A DNA stretch of 64,000 nucleotides from Candidatus Saccharimonadales bacterium (GTDB lineage Bacteria; Patescibacteriota; Saccharimonadia; Saccharimonadales; JAYRRP01). The position numbers and the translations under genes are program-made. The stretch is from contig JAYRIP010000004.1 in assembly GCA_041906765.1 (NCBI GenBank), forward strand, positions 132,342 to 196,341. The letters are read 5' to 3'. The notes under the pieces were generated by a model. The model ran no database searches. It was not told where the DNA came from and was given only the letters and a program-made list of their open reading frames with translations. Below, piece by piece: positions 39,530 to 45,786 of this stretch. Numbering within the stretch: the stretch's first letter is position 1; each line of letters starts with the position of its first letter.

Positions 39530-42436
39530 CTAGGACTTACCAAGGCTAATTTGTAGAGCTTTTTTGTCAACCACAACGGTTGTTTGGTGCGGCAAATGGG
39601 CCTTATGAGCCACATTGAGCGTGGTAGCCAGTGTTTCTTGGCTTATAACAGCTGTATGCTGCTCTATGGCCGTAGTTAACTCTGGATCGTCTGTATGCAG
39701 CTGCAATGTAATACGATCATCCACATGAAGCCCAGCTTTTTTGCGAGCATTTTGGACTTGGCGTATCACTTCACGCGCCACCCCTTCCCTTTTCAACGCA
39801 GGGGTAAGCGTAGTGTCGAGTAAAACATGCGGGAGGACAATAGCCCCATTAGCCGCCGAGCTTGCTTGCACGCTAATATGTTTCACGTTCAGCTCTTCTT
39901 TTGCAATCTCTAAGAGATCCTGATTCAGGGTATTGCCTGGGATGTTCACTAGTGTCACTGAAGCGAGCGGCTGACGCACTTTGATACCTTGCTCAGCTCG
40001 CTTAGATAGACCGTCGTTGATAGCCTGGCGTACTACTACCATCTCCTTTAAGGCCAATTCATTTATGTGACCATATTGGGGCCAATCAAGCAGATGTACG
40101 GACTCTCTTCCAGTAAGCTTTTGATAAAGTTCCTCCGCCAAAAACGGGGTAAACGGTGCCATAACCATAGCAAGCTGTACTAGGACATAATGAAGGGTCT
40201 TATAGGCGTCATGCTTATCTTTATCGCTACCTGACTTCCAAAAACGACGCCGGGAACGGCGAACGTACCAGTTCGACGCATCGTCAATGAACGGTAATAT
40301 CGGCTTCATGGCATTCGGAATGTCATACGCATCCATGTGTCTTTCCACCTCACCGGTCAACTGATGGACACGACTGATAATCCAGTGGTCTAGTGGGTTT
40401 GTGCAGCTGGGGTAAGGATCTTCATGACGACCATCCCACTCCCACCCATCCACCTCAGCGTACATAGTAAAGAAATCATACATATTCCAGATCATATCGA
40501 GTTTGCGGGCCACGTCGCCGACATCTTTGTCGTGCAAGGCAAAATCTTCGCCGTTTAACAGCGGGCTTGAAAGCAGCAGGAAGCGTAAGGAGTCGGCGGA
40601 GAACTTGTCCATCAGCTCATTCGGATCGGTGTAATTTCCATAGCTTTTGCTCATTTTACGACCATCATTGCCAGCTACGTTACCGGTAACAATAACGTTC
40701 TTGAACGAATTTTCACCGAACAACGCCACCGCCATGGCGTGCATATAGTAAAACCACGCCCGCACCTGGCCGATGTATTCAACAATGAAATCACCCGGAA
40801 AGTTTTCTTCAAATTTCTCTTTGTTCTCAAAGGGGTAATGAAACTGCGCGAATGGCATGGAACCGGCCTCAAACCAGCTGTCTATCACCTTGTCGATACG
40901 ACGGTAATGTACGCCATCCAGGTCAAACTCGATTTTATCTATCCAAGGACGATGATAATCTTCTAGCTCAATTCCTGAAAGTTCTTTTAATTCCGCGTAA
41001 CTACCTATTACTTTGGTATGTTCCTGTCCGTTGCCATCAACACCTTTCCACACCGGCATAGCCGTCGCCCAAAAGCGATCACGCGAGATGTTCCAATCTG
41101 GCGCCTGCTCAATGTTCTTGGCGAAACGGCCGTTCTTTACATGCTCTGGAAACCAGTTAATCGGACCGTTCTTCTCGAGCATCAGCTCGCGTTGACCATC
41201 GATATCTATAAACCAACTTGGGTGAGCACGGTACATCAGTCGTGTCCCACAGCGATGACAGTGAGGATAGCTGTGAAGCATGTAGTCAATTTTCCAGACA
41301 ATGCCCCGTTCTTTTAGATCTTTGGCAATCTGCTTATTAACTTCCCAAACATTATTGCCCTTCCAGGGACCTTCAGTAAAATAGCCGTTTTCGTCAATGG
41401 TATGTACCACCGGTATACCATTCTCCCGAGCCAGCTGGAAGTCCTCTTCGCCGTAAGCCGGCGCAAGGTGCACAATACCGGTACCGTCTTCGTGACTTAC
41501 GTAATCAGCAGCCCAGACCTTATGGGCTCCGCTGCCGCGATCAACCCCAAGCAACGGCTCATATGAGGCCCCCACGAGATCTTTTCCCTTCAGCTCATTG
41601 ACTGTCTCATATGTGAGCAGCTGGTGTTTCTCATCCACCAATACCTTGTTCAGGAGTTCCTTGGCGATAATGAACTGCTCGCCAGCTACTTTGACTTCCA
41701 CGTAGGTTAGTTTTTTATTGACCGCCAGTGCCGTATTGGCCGGTAATGTCCAGGGTGTGGTTGTCCACGCGAGTAGCGTCCGTCCATCAGTTAGCTTAAA
41801 CTTCACGTATACGCTCGGATCAGTTACATCCTGGTACGCACCGGCATCCATGGTGACCTCTGCTTTACTGAGAGGTGTAGCATCGAGGGTGCAGTACATC
41901 AGCACCTTTTCCCCTTCGAAAATCTTGCCTCTTTCGTATAGAGTCTTAAACGCCCACCAGATACTTTCCATATAGTCTTTGTCCATGGTCTTGTAAGCAC
42001 CTTTGAAATCTACCCAGCGGCCTATGCGATCAACCACGTCCTCCCATTCGCTCGATGTCTGCACCATGTTGTCCCGACAGGCTAGGATGTATTTTTCAAT
42101 GCCGTACTCGAGCACTTCTTCACGACTATGGATACCAAGTTTTTGCTCAGTGTAACGTTCGGCCGGCAGACCGTGGCAGTCCCATCCCCACACGCGCTCG
42201 ACTCTTTTACCTTTCATGGTCTGGTAACGCGGCACCGCATCTTTTACGATAGAGCTCAGCAGTGTACCGTGATGAGGCACACCCGAAATAAATGGTGGAC
42301 CATCATAAAATACATAGCTGTTGTCCTTGGGGCGATTTTCGATTGACCTCTCAAATGTCTTCTTGGCTTTCCACTGCTGTACTAAGTCATTTTCATATTC
42401 AAGCGGGGATCGGCGTGTTCTGGATCGATATTTCAT
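39530..42436 (-). CDS. ileS: isoleucyl-tRNA synthetase
   Basis: FYDGPPFISGVPHHGTLL (HIGH region), the CP1 editing region (TTPWTLPAN), and KMSKSYGN. At 968 aa it lacks the long Cys-rich C-terminus of type 1 enzymes. Confidence 0.97.
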   Translation of the reverse strand: MKYRSRTRRSPLEYENDLVQQWKAKKTFERSIENRPKDNSYVFYDGPPFISGVPHHGTLLSSIVKDAVPRYQTMKGKRVERVWGWDCHGLPAERYTEQKLGIHSREEVLEYGIEKYILACRDNMVQTSSEWEDVVDRIGRWVDFKGAYKTMDKDYMESIWWAFKTLYERGKIFEGEKVLMYCTLDATPLSKAEVTMDAGAYQDVTDPSVYVKFKLTDGRTLLAWTTTPWTLPANTALAVNKKLTYVEVKVAGEQFIIAKELLNKVLVDEKHQLLTYETVNELKGKDLVGASYEPLLGVDRGSGAHKVWAADYVSHEDGTGIVHLAPAYGEEDFQLARENGIPVVHTIDENGYFTEGPWKGNNVWEVNKQIAKDLKERGIVWKIDYMLHSYPHCHRCGTRLMYRAHPSWFIDIDGQRELMLEKNGPINWFPEHVKNGRFAKNIEQAPDWNISRDRFWATAMPVWKGVDGNGQEHTKVIGSYAELKELSGIELEDYHRPWIDKIEFDLDGVHYRRIDKVIDSWFEAGSMPFAQFHYPFENKEKFEENFPGDFIVEYIGQVRAWFYYMHAMAVALFGENSFKNVIVTGNVAGNDGRKMSKSYGNYTDPNELMDKFSADSLRFLLLSSPLLNGEDFALHDKDVGDVARKLDMIWNMYDFFTMYAEVDGWEWDGRHEDPYPSCTNPLDHWIISRVHQLTGEVERHMDAYDIPNAMKPILPFIDDASNWYVRRSRRRFWKSGSDKDKHDAYKTLHYVLVQLAMVMAPFTPFLAEELYQKLTGRESVHLLDWPQYGHINELALKEMVVVRQAINDGLSKRAEQGIKVRQPLASVTLVNIPGNTLNQDLLEIAKEELNVKHISVQASSAANGAIVLPHVLLDTTLTPALKREGVAREVIRQVQNARKKAGLHVDDRITLQLHTDDPELTTAIEQHTAVISQETLATTLNVAHKAHLPHQTTVVVDKKALQISLGKS

Positions 42437-42660
42437 ATTTCTTCCTTAATAAGTCAATTGGGACAAAAAAAGTCCCTCTATTCAGCCGGAATCCCTGTGT
42501 GCAGTTTTCTTGACTAAACTGCGCTTGGGGACGGTACCATCCGGCTTCCTAAAGAGACGCTTTCTCTAGAGGCCCTTGATTTTCGCTGTGACGGGCGGCC
42601 CGTCGGGTTCTACTTGGGAATATCCCGTTCTTCCCGCTCCTTCGTGGATGATAGCCACTT
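42437..42660 (-). promoter_or_regulatory. T-box leader (tRNA-Ile sensing) upstream of ileS
   Basis: The minus-strand RNA contains AGCCGGA-UGGUACC-GUCCC (plus 42527-42547). The T-box core UGGUACCG is intact. The downstream partner strand GGGAU-UCCGGCU allows a two-helix antiterminator with a 7-nt bulge, in which UGGU would pair with the tRNA ACCA end. Upstream lie AGUAGAA, a 6-bp hairpin (GACGGG-CCG-CCCGUC), then GCGAAA-AUC-A, an Ile codon followed by a purine (AUC at 42580..42578). A GGGAC-U7-GUCCC hairpin (42460-42476) and SD AAGGAAG precede the ATG. Confidence 0.6.
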
Positions 42661-42712
42661 TTGCTTTACCACTACAGTAGTAAACAGACGGATTTACAGT
42701 TATGACTATACG

Positions 42713-43000
42713 CTACAGATACGCTGCGTGCAACTCAGGTTGCGCGTAACTGGCTACTTCGCTTACAAGGGGTAATTGCTCGCCTTCCCACGAACGAATA
42801 AGCTGTCCATCGTCCGATAGGGCGAGAAGTGCAGGATAGCGGACAATGTCATATAGAGAAGCAGTAGCGGCACCGTCACGGGTATCAAGGTTCACGAGTT
42901 CCACTTTTCTGTCAGGATATAAATGACGGAACTCATGCAAGAACTCCTCGATGCTCCGCGCATGTTCAGAATCTGGTCGGTACAAAACACACACCTTCAT
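42713..43000 (-). CDS. small glutaredoxin/NrdH-like (thioredoxin-fold) protein lacking the CxxC active site
   Basis: 95 aa. MKVCVLYRPDSEHARSIEEFL...VELVNLD...YPALLAL.DDGQLIRSW follows the beta-alpha-beta...cis-Pro layout of Grx/NrdH, but PDSEH sits where CxxC is expected. Directly downstream of nrdJ. Confidence 0.5.
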   Translation of the reverse strand: MKVCVLYRPDSEHARSIEEFLHEFRHLYPDRKVELVNLDTRDGAATASLYDIVRYPALLALSDDGQLIRSWEGEQLPLVSEVASYAQPELHAAYL

Positions 43001-43029: not shown

Positions 43030-45786
43030 TTAGCTGCAGCCTGTTGTTGAGCCGCAGGCAGTACAGACGTAGCAGCTACCTGCCCGTTGCGTTTGATTAC
43101 CACAGTTATAGCAAATGGGGGCAGTGTCATCCTGGTTCTGCGTGGTTTTTAGAGCTTCTACCTGCTCTGCACCACTGACTGGCACCACATCAGACGGAAC
43201 AGCAGCGGCACTCTGTGCAGCCCCCTCATCAATAGGTAGTTCAGCTTGTTCGCCAGGCATATCTTCTATAGAGGACAAGCCGAGTTCAAGCCGATCATCG
43301 AATGGCAAATAAGTCAGAGCAAGCCGGCGCGACAGATAGTCGACAAGTGACGATGCAGTTCGTATATCAGGATCGTCAGTAATACCAGCCGGTGCAAATG
43401 ACATACTGGTAAATGACTTTACGTAGCTCTTCAGCGGAACACCATACTGTAAGCCATGACTCATACTGATGGCAAACGCATCCATAATACCACGCAAAGT
43501 GGATCCCTGTTTGGCGATACTAACAAAGATCTCACCCGGGCTGCCGTCTTCATACTCGCCTACGGTCATATACCCATGACTATCGGCTACATGAAAGGAG
43601 AAGGTTTTGGCGGCGCGGACTTTCGGCAGCTCGCGACGGACTGCACCTTTGACAATAATTTTGTCATTCACACGCTGAGCTTCATCTACAGGTGTCTTAT
43701 CATCTTCTTTCTTTGCCATAGAGAGAGGCTGAGCAACTTTGCAGTTATCCCGATAAATCGCTACTGCCTTGAGTCCCATTTTCCACGCATCGATATGAAG
43801 TTGCTCTACGTCTTCCACGCTCGCATCTTCTGGCATATTGACAGTCTTACTAATAGCACCTGAGAGAAATGGTTGCACTGCCGCCATCATTTTGACGTGG
43901 CCCAAATAATGGATAGCGTTATCGCCCATCGAACAGGCAAACACCGGAACATGCTCGGCACGAAGATGCGGCGCGCCCTGAATGGTTTTTTCTTGATCGA
44001 TGTGTCGGACGATATCAGTGATTTGGTTGGCGGTATAGCCAAGCGCTGCCAGTGCCCGTGGTACTGTTTGGTTGACGATACTCATCGTGCCGCCACCCAC
44101 CAGTTTTTTCACTTTCACCAGCCCCAAATCCGGTTCGATACCAGTGGTATCACAATCCATCATTAAACCTATGGTACCTGTGGGTGCCAATACACTGGCT
44201 TGTGCATTGCGAACTCCATACAAAGTGCCAAGTTCCACCGCCTCATCCCATGACGTCGCAGCTGCACTCAGCAATTCCTCTGCCACCAAGCCGGCATCTA
44301 TATGTGATACTGCTTCGCGATGCATCTTCAGTACATTAATCATGCCAGCTTTGTCTTTGTGGAAGCCAGCGAAGGGCCCTACCCGACTGGCAATTCGGGC
44401 ACTTGTAGTGTAAGCATGGCCGGTCATTAACGCAGTAATAGCAGCAGCCTGGGCGCGTCCTTCATCAGAATCATATGGCAATCCCTGAGCCATAAGCAAT
44501 GCGCCAAGGTTTGCGTAGCCCAAGCCTAATTCTCTGTAGGCACGGGCATTTTTGGCAATGTTCTTCGTAGGATAATCCGAGTATCCCACCAATATCTCCT
44601 GAGCAGTAAATACCAACTCAACCGTATGCTTAAACGCTTCAATATCAAAGGTCGCGTCATCTTTGAGATATTTTAATAGATTGATCGAGGCAAGATTACA
44701 AGCACTGTTATCGAGGTGCATGTATTCGCTACAAGGATTCGAGGCGTTAATGCGGCCAGCATTTGGTGTAGTGTGCCAATGATTAATCGTCGTATCGAAC
44801 TGCATGCCTGGGTCGGCACATTCCCAGGCAGCCTCAGCAATCTGTCTAAATAGGTCTCTCGCCTTGATACGTTTAACCGCCTTACCGGTCTTCATCTCTT
44901 TGAGTTCCCAATCAGCATCGTCTTCAACGGCTTGCATAAATTCGTCGGTGACACGTACCGAGTTATTGGCATTTTGATATTGCACTGAGTATGCGTCTCT
45001 CCCATCCAAACTCATATCAAAACCAGCCTCTTGTAATACGCGTGCCTTACGTTCTTCACGTGCTTTGCACCAGATAAATTCCTCAATATCAGGGTGGTCA
45101 GCATTCAGTATGACCATCTTGGCAGCTCGTCGTGTCTTACCACCACTTTTGATGGCACCGGCGGAAGCGTCTGCACCACGCATAAAGCTTAAGGGTCCGG
45201 AGGCAGTTCCGGCACTCTTACCTAGTTTTTCCATCGAGCCACGAAGAGTACTTAGGTTAATACCGGAGCCTGAGCCGCCCTTAAAAATCATGCCTTCTTC
45301 TGTGTACCAGTTAAGAATAGAGGGCATGGTGTCTTCAACGGCAAGGATAAAACAGGCGCTGGCCTGTTGAGAGCGCGTAGGTACACCGATGTTAAACCAT
45401 ACCGGTGAGTTAAAAGCGGCCCTTTGTGTTGCCAGGATGTATTTTAGCTCTTCCTTAAAGTCTGCAGTTTCGGTAGCTGATTCGAAATACCCTTCTTGTT
45501 GGCCTTGTCTGGCAATGGTATCGACAATACGGTCAATTAGATCTTTGAGTGAGGCTTCACGCTCAGAAGTACCAGGAGTACCGGTAAAATACTTTTGAGC
45601 TACGATATTAATGGCATTCTGAGACCAACCTTCAGGAAATTCCACATCTTGCTGCGCAAAGACAGGTTTACCAGTCATCGGATTGGTGATCAGGGCATCT
45701 TGCTTTGCCCATTTAAGCTTGTCATACGCTTTTGTTTTAGGAGGAGTGAATAGCCTCCTGCGCCCCAGGATTGTTGTCTGTCCCAT
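43030..45786 (-). CDS. nrdJ: adenosylcobalamin-dependent ribonucleotide reductase (class II)
   Basis: 918 aa with a class I/II RNR ten-stranded barrel signature (NPCSEYMHLDNSACNLASINL, with thiyl Cys in the finger loop) and a C-terminal Cys-rich tail (ICYNCG...CYVCTACGSTTGCS). There is no R2 gene nearby. Confidence 0.93.
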   Translation of the reverse strand: MGQTTILGRRRLFTPPKTKAYDKLKWAKQDALITNPMTGKPVFAQQDVEFPEGWSQNAINIVAQKYFTGTPGTSEREASLKDLIDRIVDTIARQGQQEGYFESATETADFKEELKYILATQRAAFNSPVWFNIGVPTRSQQASACFILAVEDTMPSILNWYTEEGMIFKGGSGSGINLSTLRGSMEKLGKSAGTASGPLSFMRGADASAGAIKSGGKTRRAAKMVILNADHPDIEEFIWCKAREERKARVLQEAGFDMSLDGRDAYSVQYQNANNSVRVTDEFMQAVEDDADWELKEMKTGKAVKRIKARDLFRQIAEAAWECADPGMQFDTTINHWHTTPNAGRINASNPCSEYMHLDNSACNLASINLLKYLKDDATFDIEAFKHTVELVFTAQEILVGYSDYPTKNIAKNARAYRELGLGYANLGALLMAQGLPYDSDEGRAQAAAITALMTGHAYTTSARIASRVGPFAGFHKDKAGMINVLKMHREAVSHIDAGLVAEELLSAAATSWDEAVELGTLYGVRNAQASVLAPTGTIGLMMDCDTTGIEPDLGLVKVKKLVGGGTMSIVNQTVPRALAALGYTANQITDIVRHIDQEKTIQGAPHLRAEHVPVFACSMGDNAIHYLGHVKMMAAVQPFLSGAISKTVNMPEDASVEDVEQLHIDAWKMGLKAVAIYRDNCKVAQPLSMAKKEDDKTPVDEAQRVNDKIIVKGAVRRELPKVRAAKTFSFHVADSHGYMTVGEYEDGSPGEIFVSIAKQGSTLRGIMDAFAISMSHGLQYGVPLKSYVKSFTSMSFAPAGITDDPDIRTASSLVDYLSRRLALTYLPFDDRLELGLSSIEDMPGEQAELPIDEGAAQSAAAVPSDVVPVSGAEQVEALKTTQNQDDTAPICYNCGNQTQRAGSCYVCTACGSTTGCS

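Follow-up and report, generated by a model that had tools for sequence, protein, structure and literature searches.

The leader of the isoleucine-tRNA ligase gene ileS in a Candidatus Saccharimonadales bacterium raises the question of what this RNA senses and by which output it controls the gene. It occupies about 42660-42465 on the minus strand of a 64,000-nt stretch of contig JAYRIP010000004.1 (hereafter the window, meaning this whole stretch), between a 95-amino-acid open reading frame (ORF; 42713-43000) and ileS. A preliminary description had recognized here a T-box riboswitch with an ultrashort Stem I of the actinobacterial ileS type, and had left undecided whether its expression platform is a terminator or a helix sequestering the Shine-Dalgarno (SD) sequence. 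T-boxes are a model system for RNA-RNA sensing, and in current models uncharged tRNA stacks on helix A1 of the T-box core and stabilizes it against a terminator formed from the 3′ strands of helices A1 and A2. In the literature, transcriptional T-boxes generally require a long Stem I platform and draw the 5′ strand of their terminator from A1/A2; T-boxes with an ultrashort Stem I are described as translational and as confined to actinobacterial ileS.

Judged by sequence comparison, the ileS leader is a T-box of the ultrashort-Stem-I class, homologous to the actinobacterial ileS elements. We consider it probable that it senses uncharged tRNA-Ile and acts by transcription attenuation, with docking of Stem III blocking invasion by the terminator strand. 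The Saccharibacteria family to which it belongs departs from all three generalizations: the translational and actinobacterial character of the class, the need for a long Stem I, and the derivation of the terminator strand from A1/A2.

A conserved leader upstream of ileS in Saccharibacteria

We assembled 80 orthologous ileS loci from species-representative genomes, all of them metagenome-assembled genomes of Candidatus Saccharibacteria/Saccharimonadales, with IleS identities of 70-76%. Of 81 sequences, 75 carry the leader upstream of ileS according to an anchor search on GAUGGNACC, and helix A1 is perfectly complementary in at least 16 sequence variants. Two covariance models were built: R1, covering the 3′ domain, from a 16-ortholog seed that excluded the window, and R2, covering the decoding domain from Stem I through Stem III, from a 12-ortholog seed. 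In the window, R1 scored 42.6 bits (E=3e-7) over 42465-42578 (−) and R2 63.5 bits (E=3e-12) over 42546-42661 (−), and neither model found a second copy of the element in the 64-kb window. Across 79 orthologous loci R1 gave exactly one forward-strand match per locus, its weaker reverse-strand matches reflecting hairpin symmetry, and R2 gave 79 matches, all forward and with the window among them. The element begins at about 42660, which is also the edge of the interval drawn in the preliminary description.

Alignments of the 3′ domain and of the full decoding domain made with MAFFT only misregistered the variable loops, and we therefore used model-based alignments. In the R2 alignment, 92.8% of pair cells hold standard pairs, versus 42-50% when the partners are slid by 1-3 columns; 25 of the 26 pairs have changed on both sides, and none of 500 shuffles reached any of these measures. 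Coordinates of the individual features are collected in Table 1.

Table 1. Features of the ileS leader and its surroundings, in window coordinates and 5′ to 3′ along the transcript.
Feature	Position	Strand	Basis
TATAGT, candidate -10 hexamer, tentatively marking the 5′ boundary of the transcript	42705-42710	-	sequence reading
Ultrashort Stem I, 4-bp GUGG/CCAC, with 7-nt specifier loop CUAUCAU	42644-42658	-	covariation
Stem II with S-turn: lower helix CGGG/CCCG, internal loop AAGAA (42632-42628), upper helix GGG/CCC	42604-42636	-	covariation
Stem IIA/B pseudoknot; IIA pairs CGG 42602-42600 with CCG 42594-42592	42584-42602	-	covariation
Purine string AAGGG (RRRxG motif), just 5′ of Stem III	42573-42577	-	conservation
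Stem III; 3′ arm 42558-42550 is the shared switching strand	42548-42572	-	covariation
AA dinucleotide between Stem III and helix A1	42546-42547	-	A in 78 and 79 of 79
T-box core	42485-42545	-	covariation and RF00230 alignment
Terminator 3′ arm UAGAGGGAC 42480-42472 and U7 tract 42471-42465	42465-42480	-	covariation
Shine-Dalgarno AAGGAAG 42447-42441 and ileS start AUG 42436-42434	42434-42447	-	sequence reading
ileS, regulated gene, isoleucine-tRNA ligase, 968 aa	39530-42436	-	TIGR00392

A minimal decoding domain

Stem I is 99% paired, and all four of its pairs have changed on both sides. Its terminal loop presents the specifier AUC (42652-42650), followed by the purine A42649; the specifier matches the regulated gene, AUC being an isoleucine codon and the downstream gene ileS. 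In the 79 genome orthologs the loop reads Y-U-A-U-C-A-N, with A, U, C and the following A in 75, 77, 76 and 74 of them, respectively, and AUC is found in 69 of 69 copies recovered from metagenomes (see below), where three odd loop calls are alignment artefacts. A long Stem I with the elbow-binding platform (IDTM, a motif of two interdigitated T-loops), the kink-turn and the specifier internal loop are all absent from this ultrashort stem. The lack of a distal double T-loop platform also shows in ortholog L031, where positions 1-71 of the Rfam T-box model RF00230 remain unmatched. GA dinucleotides flank Stem I on both sides (G 52, A 78; G 70, A 53 of 79; AA...GA in the window) and may be a remnant of the GA motif.

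In all orthologs the 7-nt loop (Y-U-[AUC]-A-N, 42648-42654) has the layout of a tRNA anticodon loop, with a U33-like U, the triplet and a purine-37-like A. With this layout, the specifier would recognize the anticodon by contact between the loops of two anticodon-like hairpins.

The lower and upper helices of Stem II are 92-98% paired, with covariation at 8 of 8 pairs, and in the window the internal loop AAGAA faces AAGUAGAA (42615-42608). This S-turn, AAGAA opposite A-G-U-A-G-A, is near-invariant among the 79 orthologs, and RF00230 aligns its own Stem II GAA/AGU onto the same region in an ortholog. In the adjoining pseudoknot, Stem IIA consists of two invariant pairs and one covarying pair, and helix IIB, formed by the loop CGC (42597-42595) with GCG (42586-42584), covaries at its three central pairs (e.g. 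CG 44, UA 8, GC 6, AU 5). The F-box CCGUCA (42594-42589) follows the pattern CG...CG-[U/A]-N-A, almost invariant across the family, and is identical to that of Nocardia farcinica (PMC7583486).

These assignments revise part of the preliminary description. Its four sequence elements all lie on the minus strand as described, and its S-turn AGUAGAA (42614-42608) is the S-turn of Stem II. It had placed the specifier in GCGAAAAUCA (42586-42577), where the AUC at 42580-42578 belongs to a linker that is not conserved and the GCG forms the 3′ strand of IIB; the conserved AUC-A is the one at 42652-42649. The 6-bp hairpin GACGGG/CCCGUC (42603-42590) that it had put before the specifier is in fact Stem IIA with the F-box, and its "Stem II-like" helix CUAGAGA/UCUCUUUAG, within 42569-42549, is Stem III, flanked by AAGGG and AA. 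It had also proposed that orthologous leaders should covary at the specifier and antiterminator helices; helices A1 and A2 do so, and so does Stem I, which carries the specifier.

The discriminator

The 3′ part of the leader carries the RRRxG-Stem III-AA discriminator motif defined in PMC7583486. The purines preceding Stem III read A-A-G-N-G, with the four specified bases present in 74, 79, 79 and 76 of 79 orthologs, and Stem III itself is 97.6% paired, with covariation at 8 of 9 pairs. Within the T-box core, helix A1 pairs GCCGGA (42545-42540) with UCCGGC (42490-42485), the 7-nt bulge UGGUACC (42539-42533) directly abuts A1, and helix A2 pairs GUCCC (42532-42528) with GGGAU (42495-42491), a G42532-U42491 wobble included. 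In the R1 alignment A1 covaries at 4 of 6 pairs and has zero unpaired cells, and A2 covaries at 4 of 4. The antiterminator had been drawn correctly from the outset, as AGCCGGA (42546-42540), UGGUACC and GUCCC with the complements GGGAU and UCCGGCU (42490-42484). The terminal pair of A2, in T-boxes a G-U wobble that senses aminoacylation sterically, is GU in the window and is not universal: among 77 elements it is GU in 40, UA in 17, AU in 14, GC in 3 and another combination in 3.

The bulge is UGGUACC in 69 of 78 elements. The U of UGGU predicts A73, the usual discriminator base of bacterial tRNA-Ile. Minority variants are UGGAACC (L023, L031, L061), UGGCACC (L079, L013), UGGUAUC (L025, L027, L056) and UGGUAAC (L004, L044), and in some of these the base that should pair with the tRNA discriminator has changed from U to A or C. 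Those genomes either have a different tRNA-Ile discriminator or tolerate a mismatch.

The window also has an insertion of its own, 32 nt in the A2 loop (42527-42496, −), with a hairpin GCAGUUU/AAACUGC; enlarged A2 loops occur in a few orthologs as well (L055, L080, L005, L012, L036, L039, L050). According to review literature, A2-loop insertions are typical of translational T-boxes.

Relation to actinobacterial ileS T-boxes

A scan with RF00230 had been suggested as the check on T-box identity. With its gathering cut-off of 93 bits, this model gave no match in the window even at E≤10, permissive scans included, and at gathering threshold Rfam found nothing in 16 orthologous loci. Such a scan is not a valid test for this class of T-box. 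As positive controls we took the regions upstream of ileS in two actinobacteria, Tsukamurella (L201) and Microbacterium (L202), which RF00230 scored at 31.9 bits (L201:409-588) and 23.2 bits (L202:394-605). These scores are also far below 93, and the miss in the window is therefore not evidence against T-box identity; it is probably due to the 32-nt insertion in the A2 loop. The ultrashort-Stem-I class as a whole is invisible to standard Rfam annotation.

A small-region scan of ortholog L031 with RF00230 reached 18-19 bits (E=0.02), and the alignment runs one-to-one through Stem II GAA/AGU, IIA with CGUUA, AGuG, Stem III, AA and A1-UGGNACC-A2, the T-box sequence of the model being placed onto the L031 core at high posterior probability. 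Moreover, R2, whose seed contains Saccharibacteria only, aligned over its full length to the leaders of both Tsukamurella (29.8 bits, E=3e-6) and Microbacterium (20.6 bits, E=5e-4), bringing into register the AUCA loop, the S-turn, CCGUCA, RRRxG, Stem III and AA. Since R2 both detects and aligns the actinobacterial leaders, we regard the Saccharibacteria leader as homologous to the ultrashort-Stem-I ileS T-boxes, in agreement with the type that the preliminary description had assigned. R1, in turn, gave nothing meaningful for either the actinobacterial leaders or the canonical T-boxes L114 and L160 from metagenomes (≤17 bits, with the basal helix broken).

The preliminary description had also raised transfer with actinobacterial hosts, for which we found no support. 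IleS shares about 41% identity with its actinobacterial counterparts and about 39-40% with the enzymes of Bacillus, Paenibacillus and Pseudoalteromonas, so that a recent transfer is not indicated by comparison with these Firmicute and proteobacterial IleRS2-type enzymes. The leader may stem from deep shared ancestry or from an ancient transfer.

A proposed terminator that exchanges strands with Stem III

In the minimum free energy (MFE) structure of the window leader, GUCUCUUUA (42558-42550) pairs with UAGAGGGAC (42480-42472) and encloses A1/A2, and the U7 tract follows. As its 5′ strand, this basal helix uses the Stem III 3′ arm (plus loop). The resulting long hairpin thus comprises a basal helix of 9-15 bp, A1 and A2, with the U-tract directly after it. 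Across the family, the terminator conformer is 97.4% paired, versus 41-57% for slid partners, with compensatory changes at 21 of 25 pairs and, in the 15-pair basal helix, at 13 positions. The 3′ arm of Stem III therefore has two covarying and mutually exclusive partners, its own 5′ arm and the strand downstream of A1.

Folding supports the same two states. The terminator conformer is the MFE structure in 77 of 78 elements, with A1/A2 kept paired, and lies on average 12.7 kcal/mol below the conformer with Stem III and A1/A2 (mean ΔΔG −12.7 kcal/mol), a difference similar to the one between terminator and antiterminator that TBDB reports for known T-boxes. With the downstream arm kept out of the folding, 74 of 78 elements form Stem III. 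In 76 of 78 elements, 5-7 of the 8 nt following the helix are U, and in the remaining two 4 are. The 3′ arm of Stem III has a mean contiguous downstream match of 12 nt, and for the 3′ strands of A2 and A1 the longest downstream complementarity is 6.3 nt versus 5.7 nt in shuffled sequence, showing no excess. The SD sequence and the ileS start lie outside every conserved pairing; 14-132 nt separate the U-tract from the next start codon in 48 loci, and other genes intervene in 29 of 77. The choice between terminator and SD sequestrator thus resolves to a terminator of unusual topology.

Part of this platform had already been noticed as a GGGAC-U7-GUCCC element (42476-42460). The sequence is there, and its GGGAC-U7 is the end of the terminator 3′ arm with the U-tract; the GUCCC after these is not conserved, and the hairpin that the element could form is specific to the window, as is the pairing of GGGAC with the T-box GUCCC, which orthologs do not conserve.

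A model for tRNA-dependent attenuation and its alternatives

We propose, and slightly favor in this specific form, that the Saccharibacteria T-box joins a minimal tRNA-Ile decoder to a constitutive A1/A2 core, with tRNA-dependent docking of Stem III deciding against a terminator that encloses the core. During transcription, Stem III and A1/A2 would fold first. Uncharged tRNA-Ile would then pair its anticodon with AUC and its 3′-ACCA with UGGU, upon which the purine string and Stem III would dock on A1, as in solved T-box complexes. Invasion by the downstream strand has to begin at the Stem III/A1 junction, the very site of the latch; we therefore suggest that bound tRNA would lock Stem III, block the downstream strand at this junction and let RNA polymerase read into ileS. 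With charged tRNA or none, Stem III would remain undocked and the downstream strand would displace its 5′ arm, completing the terminator and stopping transcription. The long terminator hairpin is the thermodynamic default, and in this OFF state A1/A2 would not be unwound, unlike in all described T-boxes. Mechanistic precedents come from the Mycobacterium tuberculosis ileS T-box, where single-molecule work found that charged tRNA undocks the linker and Stem III moves off the antisequestrator (PMC12647780), and from cryo-EM, in which Stem III stacks on the antisequestrator (10.1101/2023.02.28.530422). Within the model, it is tRNA binding, termination and the docking role of Stem III that we infer.

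Several points weigh against this proposal. The A1-bulge-A2 core is present in the terminator form too, so pairing of the tRNA 3′ end cannot by itself tell the two states apart, and the model leans on Stem III docking as known from other T-boxes. The literature ties transcriptional T-boxes to elbow contact by a long Stem I for fast capture of tRNA, which makes a co-transcriptional switch with an ultrashort Stem I kinetically questionable. Both alignments were fitted to the structures under test, a circularity that the slid and shuffled controls mitigate and do not remove. A simple scan for terminators in the genome found 23 where 17.6 ± 3.5 were expected, with no clear enrichment, and a tRNA-Ile gene on which to check the discriminator base was not found in the window or in the 202 loci.

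Four other readings deserve comparison. The leader could be a T-box-derived aptamer attached to a terminator that is constitutive or otherwise controlled (stabilizing, processing or leaky), with tRNA having another role or none. A1-bulge-A2 is intact inside the terminator hairpin, as this reading would have it, and the canonical logic, in which tRNA stabilizes A1 against the terminator, consequently cannot apply. Yet Stem III covaries independently while sharing its 3′ arm with the terminator, and such a three-way constraint on Stem III, shared arm and terminator marks a switch; strong purifying selection acts on every tRNA-contacting motif in some 150 copies, and the ΔΔG of about −13 kcal/mol matches the gap in TBDB. 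We judge this reading unlikely. The intact acceptor site in the terminator conformer (A1, UGGU bulge, A2) would equally suit an inverted logic, in which uncharged tRNA binds the bulge in the long hairpin, stabilizes the hairpin and raises termination. That would shut off ileS when tRNA-Ile is uncharged, which is physiologically senseless; the terminator, already about 13 kcal/mol more stable, needs no help; and the RRRxG and AA purines that latch the tRNA/bulge helix are positioned only when Stem III has formed. Inverted logic therefore seems very improbable to us.

The remaining two would align the leader with T-boxes already described. All described ultrashort-Stem-I T-boxes are translational, the decoding domain is homologous to theirs, and the A2-loop insertion of the window is a feature reported as common in translational T-boxes; on this reading the hairpin and U-run would be incidental and tRNA would control access of the ribosome to the SD sequence, as in actinobacterial ileS. 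We hold this to be quite improbable. The SD sequence is 14-132 nt away from the U-tract, another gene comes next in 29 of 77 loci, the U-tract directly follows the covarying helix in 78 of 78 elements, and the 3′ strand of A1 has no conserved downstream partner, whereas in the Tsukamurella leader, where Stem III is intact, that strand (CCCC) pairs with the SD (GGAG). As an expression platform, SD sequestration was rejected for its lack of conserved pairing, its variable distance from the U-tract and the missing partner of the A1 strand. A canonical switch, with the 3′ strands of A1/A2 re-pairing with downstream sequence as the terminator, is the arrangement of all described transcriptional T-boxes and of the metagenome examples L114 and L160. 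We give it hardly any credence here: the 6.3-nt complementarity of the A2 and A1 3′ strands against 5.7 nt on shuffling, beside the 12-nt match of the Stem III 3′ arm, led us to reject this topology, and the MFE structures keep A1/A2 paired in 77 of 78 elements.

Comparison with known T-boxes and riboswitches

With the actinobacterial ultrashort ileS T-boxes (M. tuberculosis, M. smegmatis, N. farcinica; L201, L202), the Saccharibacteria element shares the ileS target, AUC-A in the terminal loop of a 4-bp Stem I without elbow-binding platform, the S-turn (GAAGAA / AGUAGAA), IIA/B with the F-box CCGUCA, RRRxG-Stem III-AA, the A1-UGGUACC-A2 core and scores far below the Rfam cut-off. The two differ in host phylum, Saccharibacteria within the Candidate Phyla Radiation (CPR) as against Actinomycetota, and in the Stem I loop, which has 7 nt here and 6 nt (CCAUCA) in two actinobacterial examples. 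They differ also in output. In actinobacterial elements the A1 3′ strand sequesters the SD, Stem III is intact in both states and there is no U-tract, whereas in the Saccharibacteria element a U-tract terminator arises by strand exchange with Stem III, A1/A2 remain paired and the SD is left free.

Canonical transcriptional T-boxes of Firmicutes (tyrS/glyQS type of B. subtilis, RF00230; L114, L160) have in common with the Saccharibacteria element an intrinsic terminator as output, a default OFF state, a terminator about 12-13 kcal/mol below the ON conformer, the discriminator core and the purine string. They have, however, a long Stem I with a double T-loop platform and build the terminator 5′ strand from the A1 and A2 3′ strands. 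The Saccharibacteria element combines an ultrashort Stem I with a terminator whose 5′ strand is the Stem III 3′ arm and whose apical part consists of A1/A2. In some riboswitch platforms, the terminator strand invades the closing helix that the ligand stabilizes (P1-type strand displacement). As in these, one strand is common to a ligand-stabilized helix and a more stable terminator, and the decision is presumably kinetic and co-transcriptional; unlike in these, the ligand is a tRNA, and Stem III belongs to the discriminator as a peripheral docking helix and does not close a binding pocket.

If the model is correct, this would be the first T-box described in the CPR. The literature that we searched, which mostly leaves out subscription journals so that a prior report is possible, holds no T-box report for Saccharibacteria, Patescibacteria, CPR or TM7. 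Current catalogues probably lack elements of this class, as it is invisible to Rfam-based annotation and the translational model of TBDB was run only on Actinobacteria. The family would further be a natural counter-example both to the need for a long Stem I and to stabilization of A1 against the terminator by tRNA, and would demonstrate that a transcriptional switch can work with a minimal decoding domain. An A1/A2 core that is never unwound, combined with a switching Stem III, would isolate the share that docking of Stem III and the purine string has in sensing aminoacylation, and would make the proposed latch directly testable by simple termination assays. The leader would also count among the few identifiable cis-regulatory sensors in Saccharibacteria, ultrasmall epibionts unable to make amino acids, and it suggests that they monitor isoleucine supply through tRNA charging.

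The locus and the leader boundaries

The ileS product matches TIGR00392 with 795.7 bits, above the cut-off of 621. The 95-aa ORF upstream (−), for which NCBIfam gave no match, follows nrdJ and precedes the leader, and its stop codon overlaps the candidate -10 hexamer. In 60 of 78 orthologs a hexamer resembling a -10 element (at least 5 of 6 matching) lies no more than 60 nt upstream of Stem I, a suggestive count from a scan without a control; a strict scan upstream of the leader found no promoter. In several members (L030, L002 and others), an extra small hairpin lies between the putative -10 and Stem I, and one may be present in the window too (42662-42700, −; UUACUAC...GUGGUAA), its sequence not being conserved. 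Nowhere in the 64-kb window is there a tRNA gene or an Rfam family that reaches its gathering threshold, and there is no cobalamin riboswitch upstream of the B12-dependent nrdJ (43030-45786) at that threshold.

Distribution and neighboring genes

A scan of metagenomes for the discriminator signature returned at least 120 stretches. Since the pattern required GATGGTACC and AAGNGC, divergent relatives would escape it. The full decoding domain is present in 69 of the first 100 stretches, with more clear members in the last 20, and of the 61 copies among the first 100 with at least 400 nt of downstream sequence, 51 have ileS within 2.6 kb. In the two long exceptions a restriction-modification module is inserted before ileS. 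As to other specifiers or targets, the matches listed show no codon but AUC and no target but ileS operons, apart from chance matches and the two canonical T-boxes. The family thus seems to be confined to isoleucine and ileS, as reported for ultrashort T-boxes.

Insertions are frequent in the short slot that separates the T-box terminator from ileS, a hotspot that holds one or two unrelated ORFs in 29 of the 77 genome loci, among them L002, L005, L007, L011, L015, L019, L023, L029, L033, L036, L038, L039, L044-L046, L050, L053, L055, L056, L058, L059, L068, L070, L073, L075 and L077-L079. Some encode small acidic proteins of 50-83 aa, and others look by eye like GNAT, cupin, CYTH, Tag, NUDIX or HAD proteins. 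In the metagenome stretches L123 (3853-6600) and L142 (881-3384), the slot holds an EcoRI-like methyltransferase together with a GmrSD/HNH nuclease. Genes at this position would be co-regulated with ileS by the charging of tRNA-Ile.

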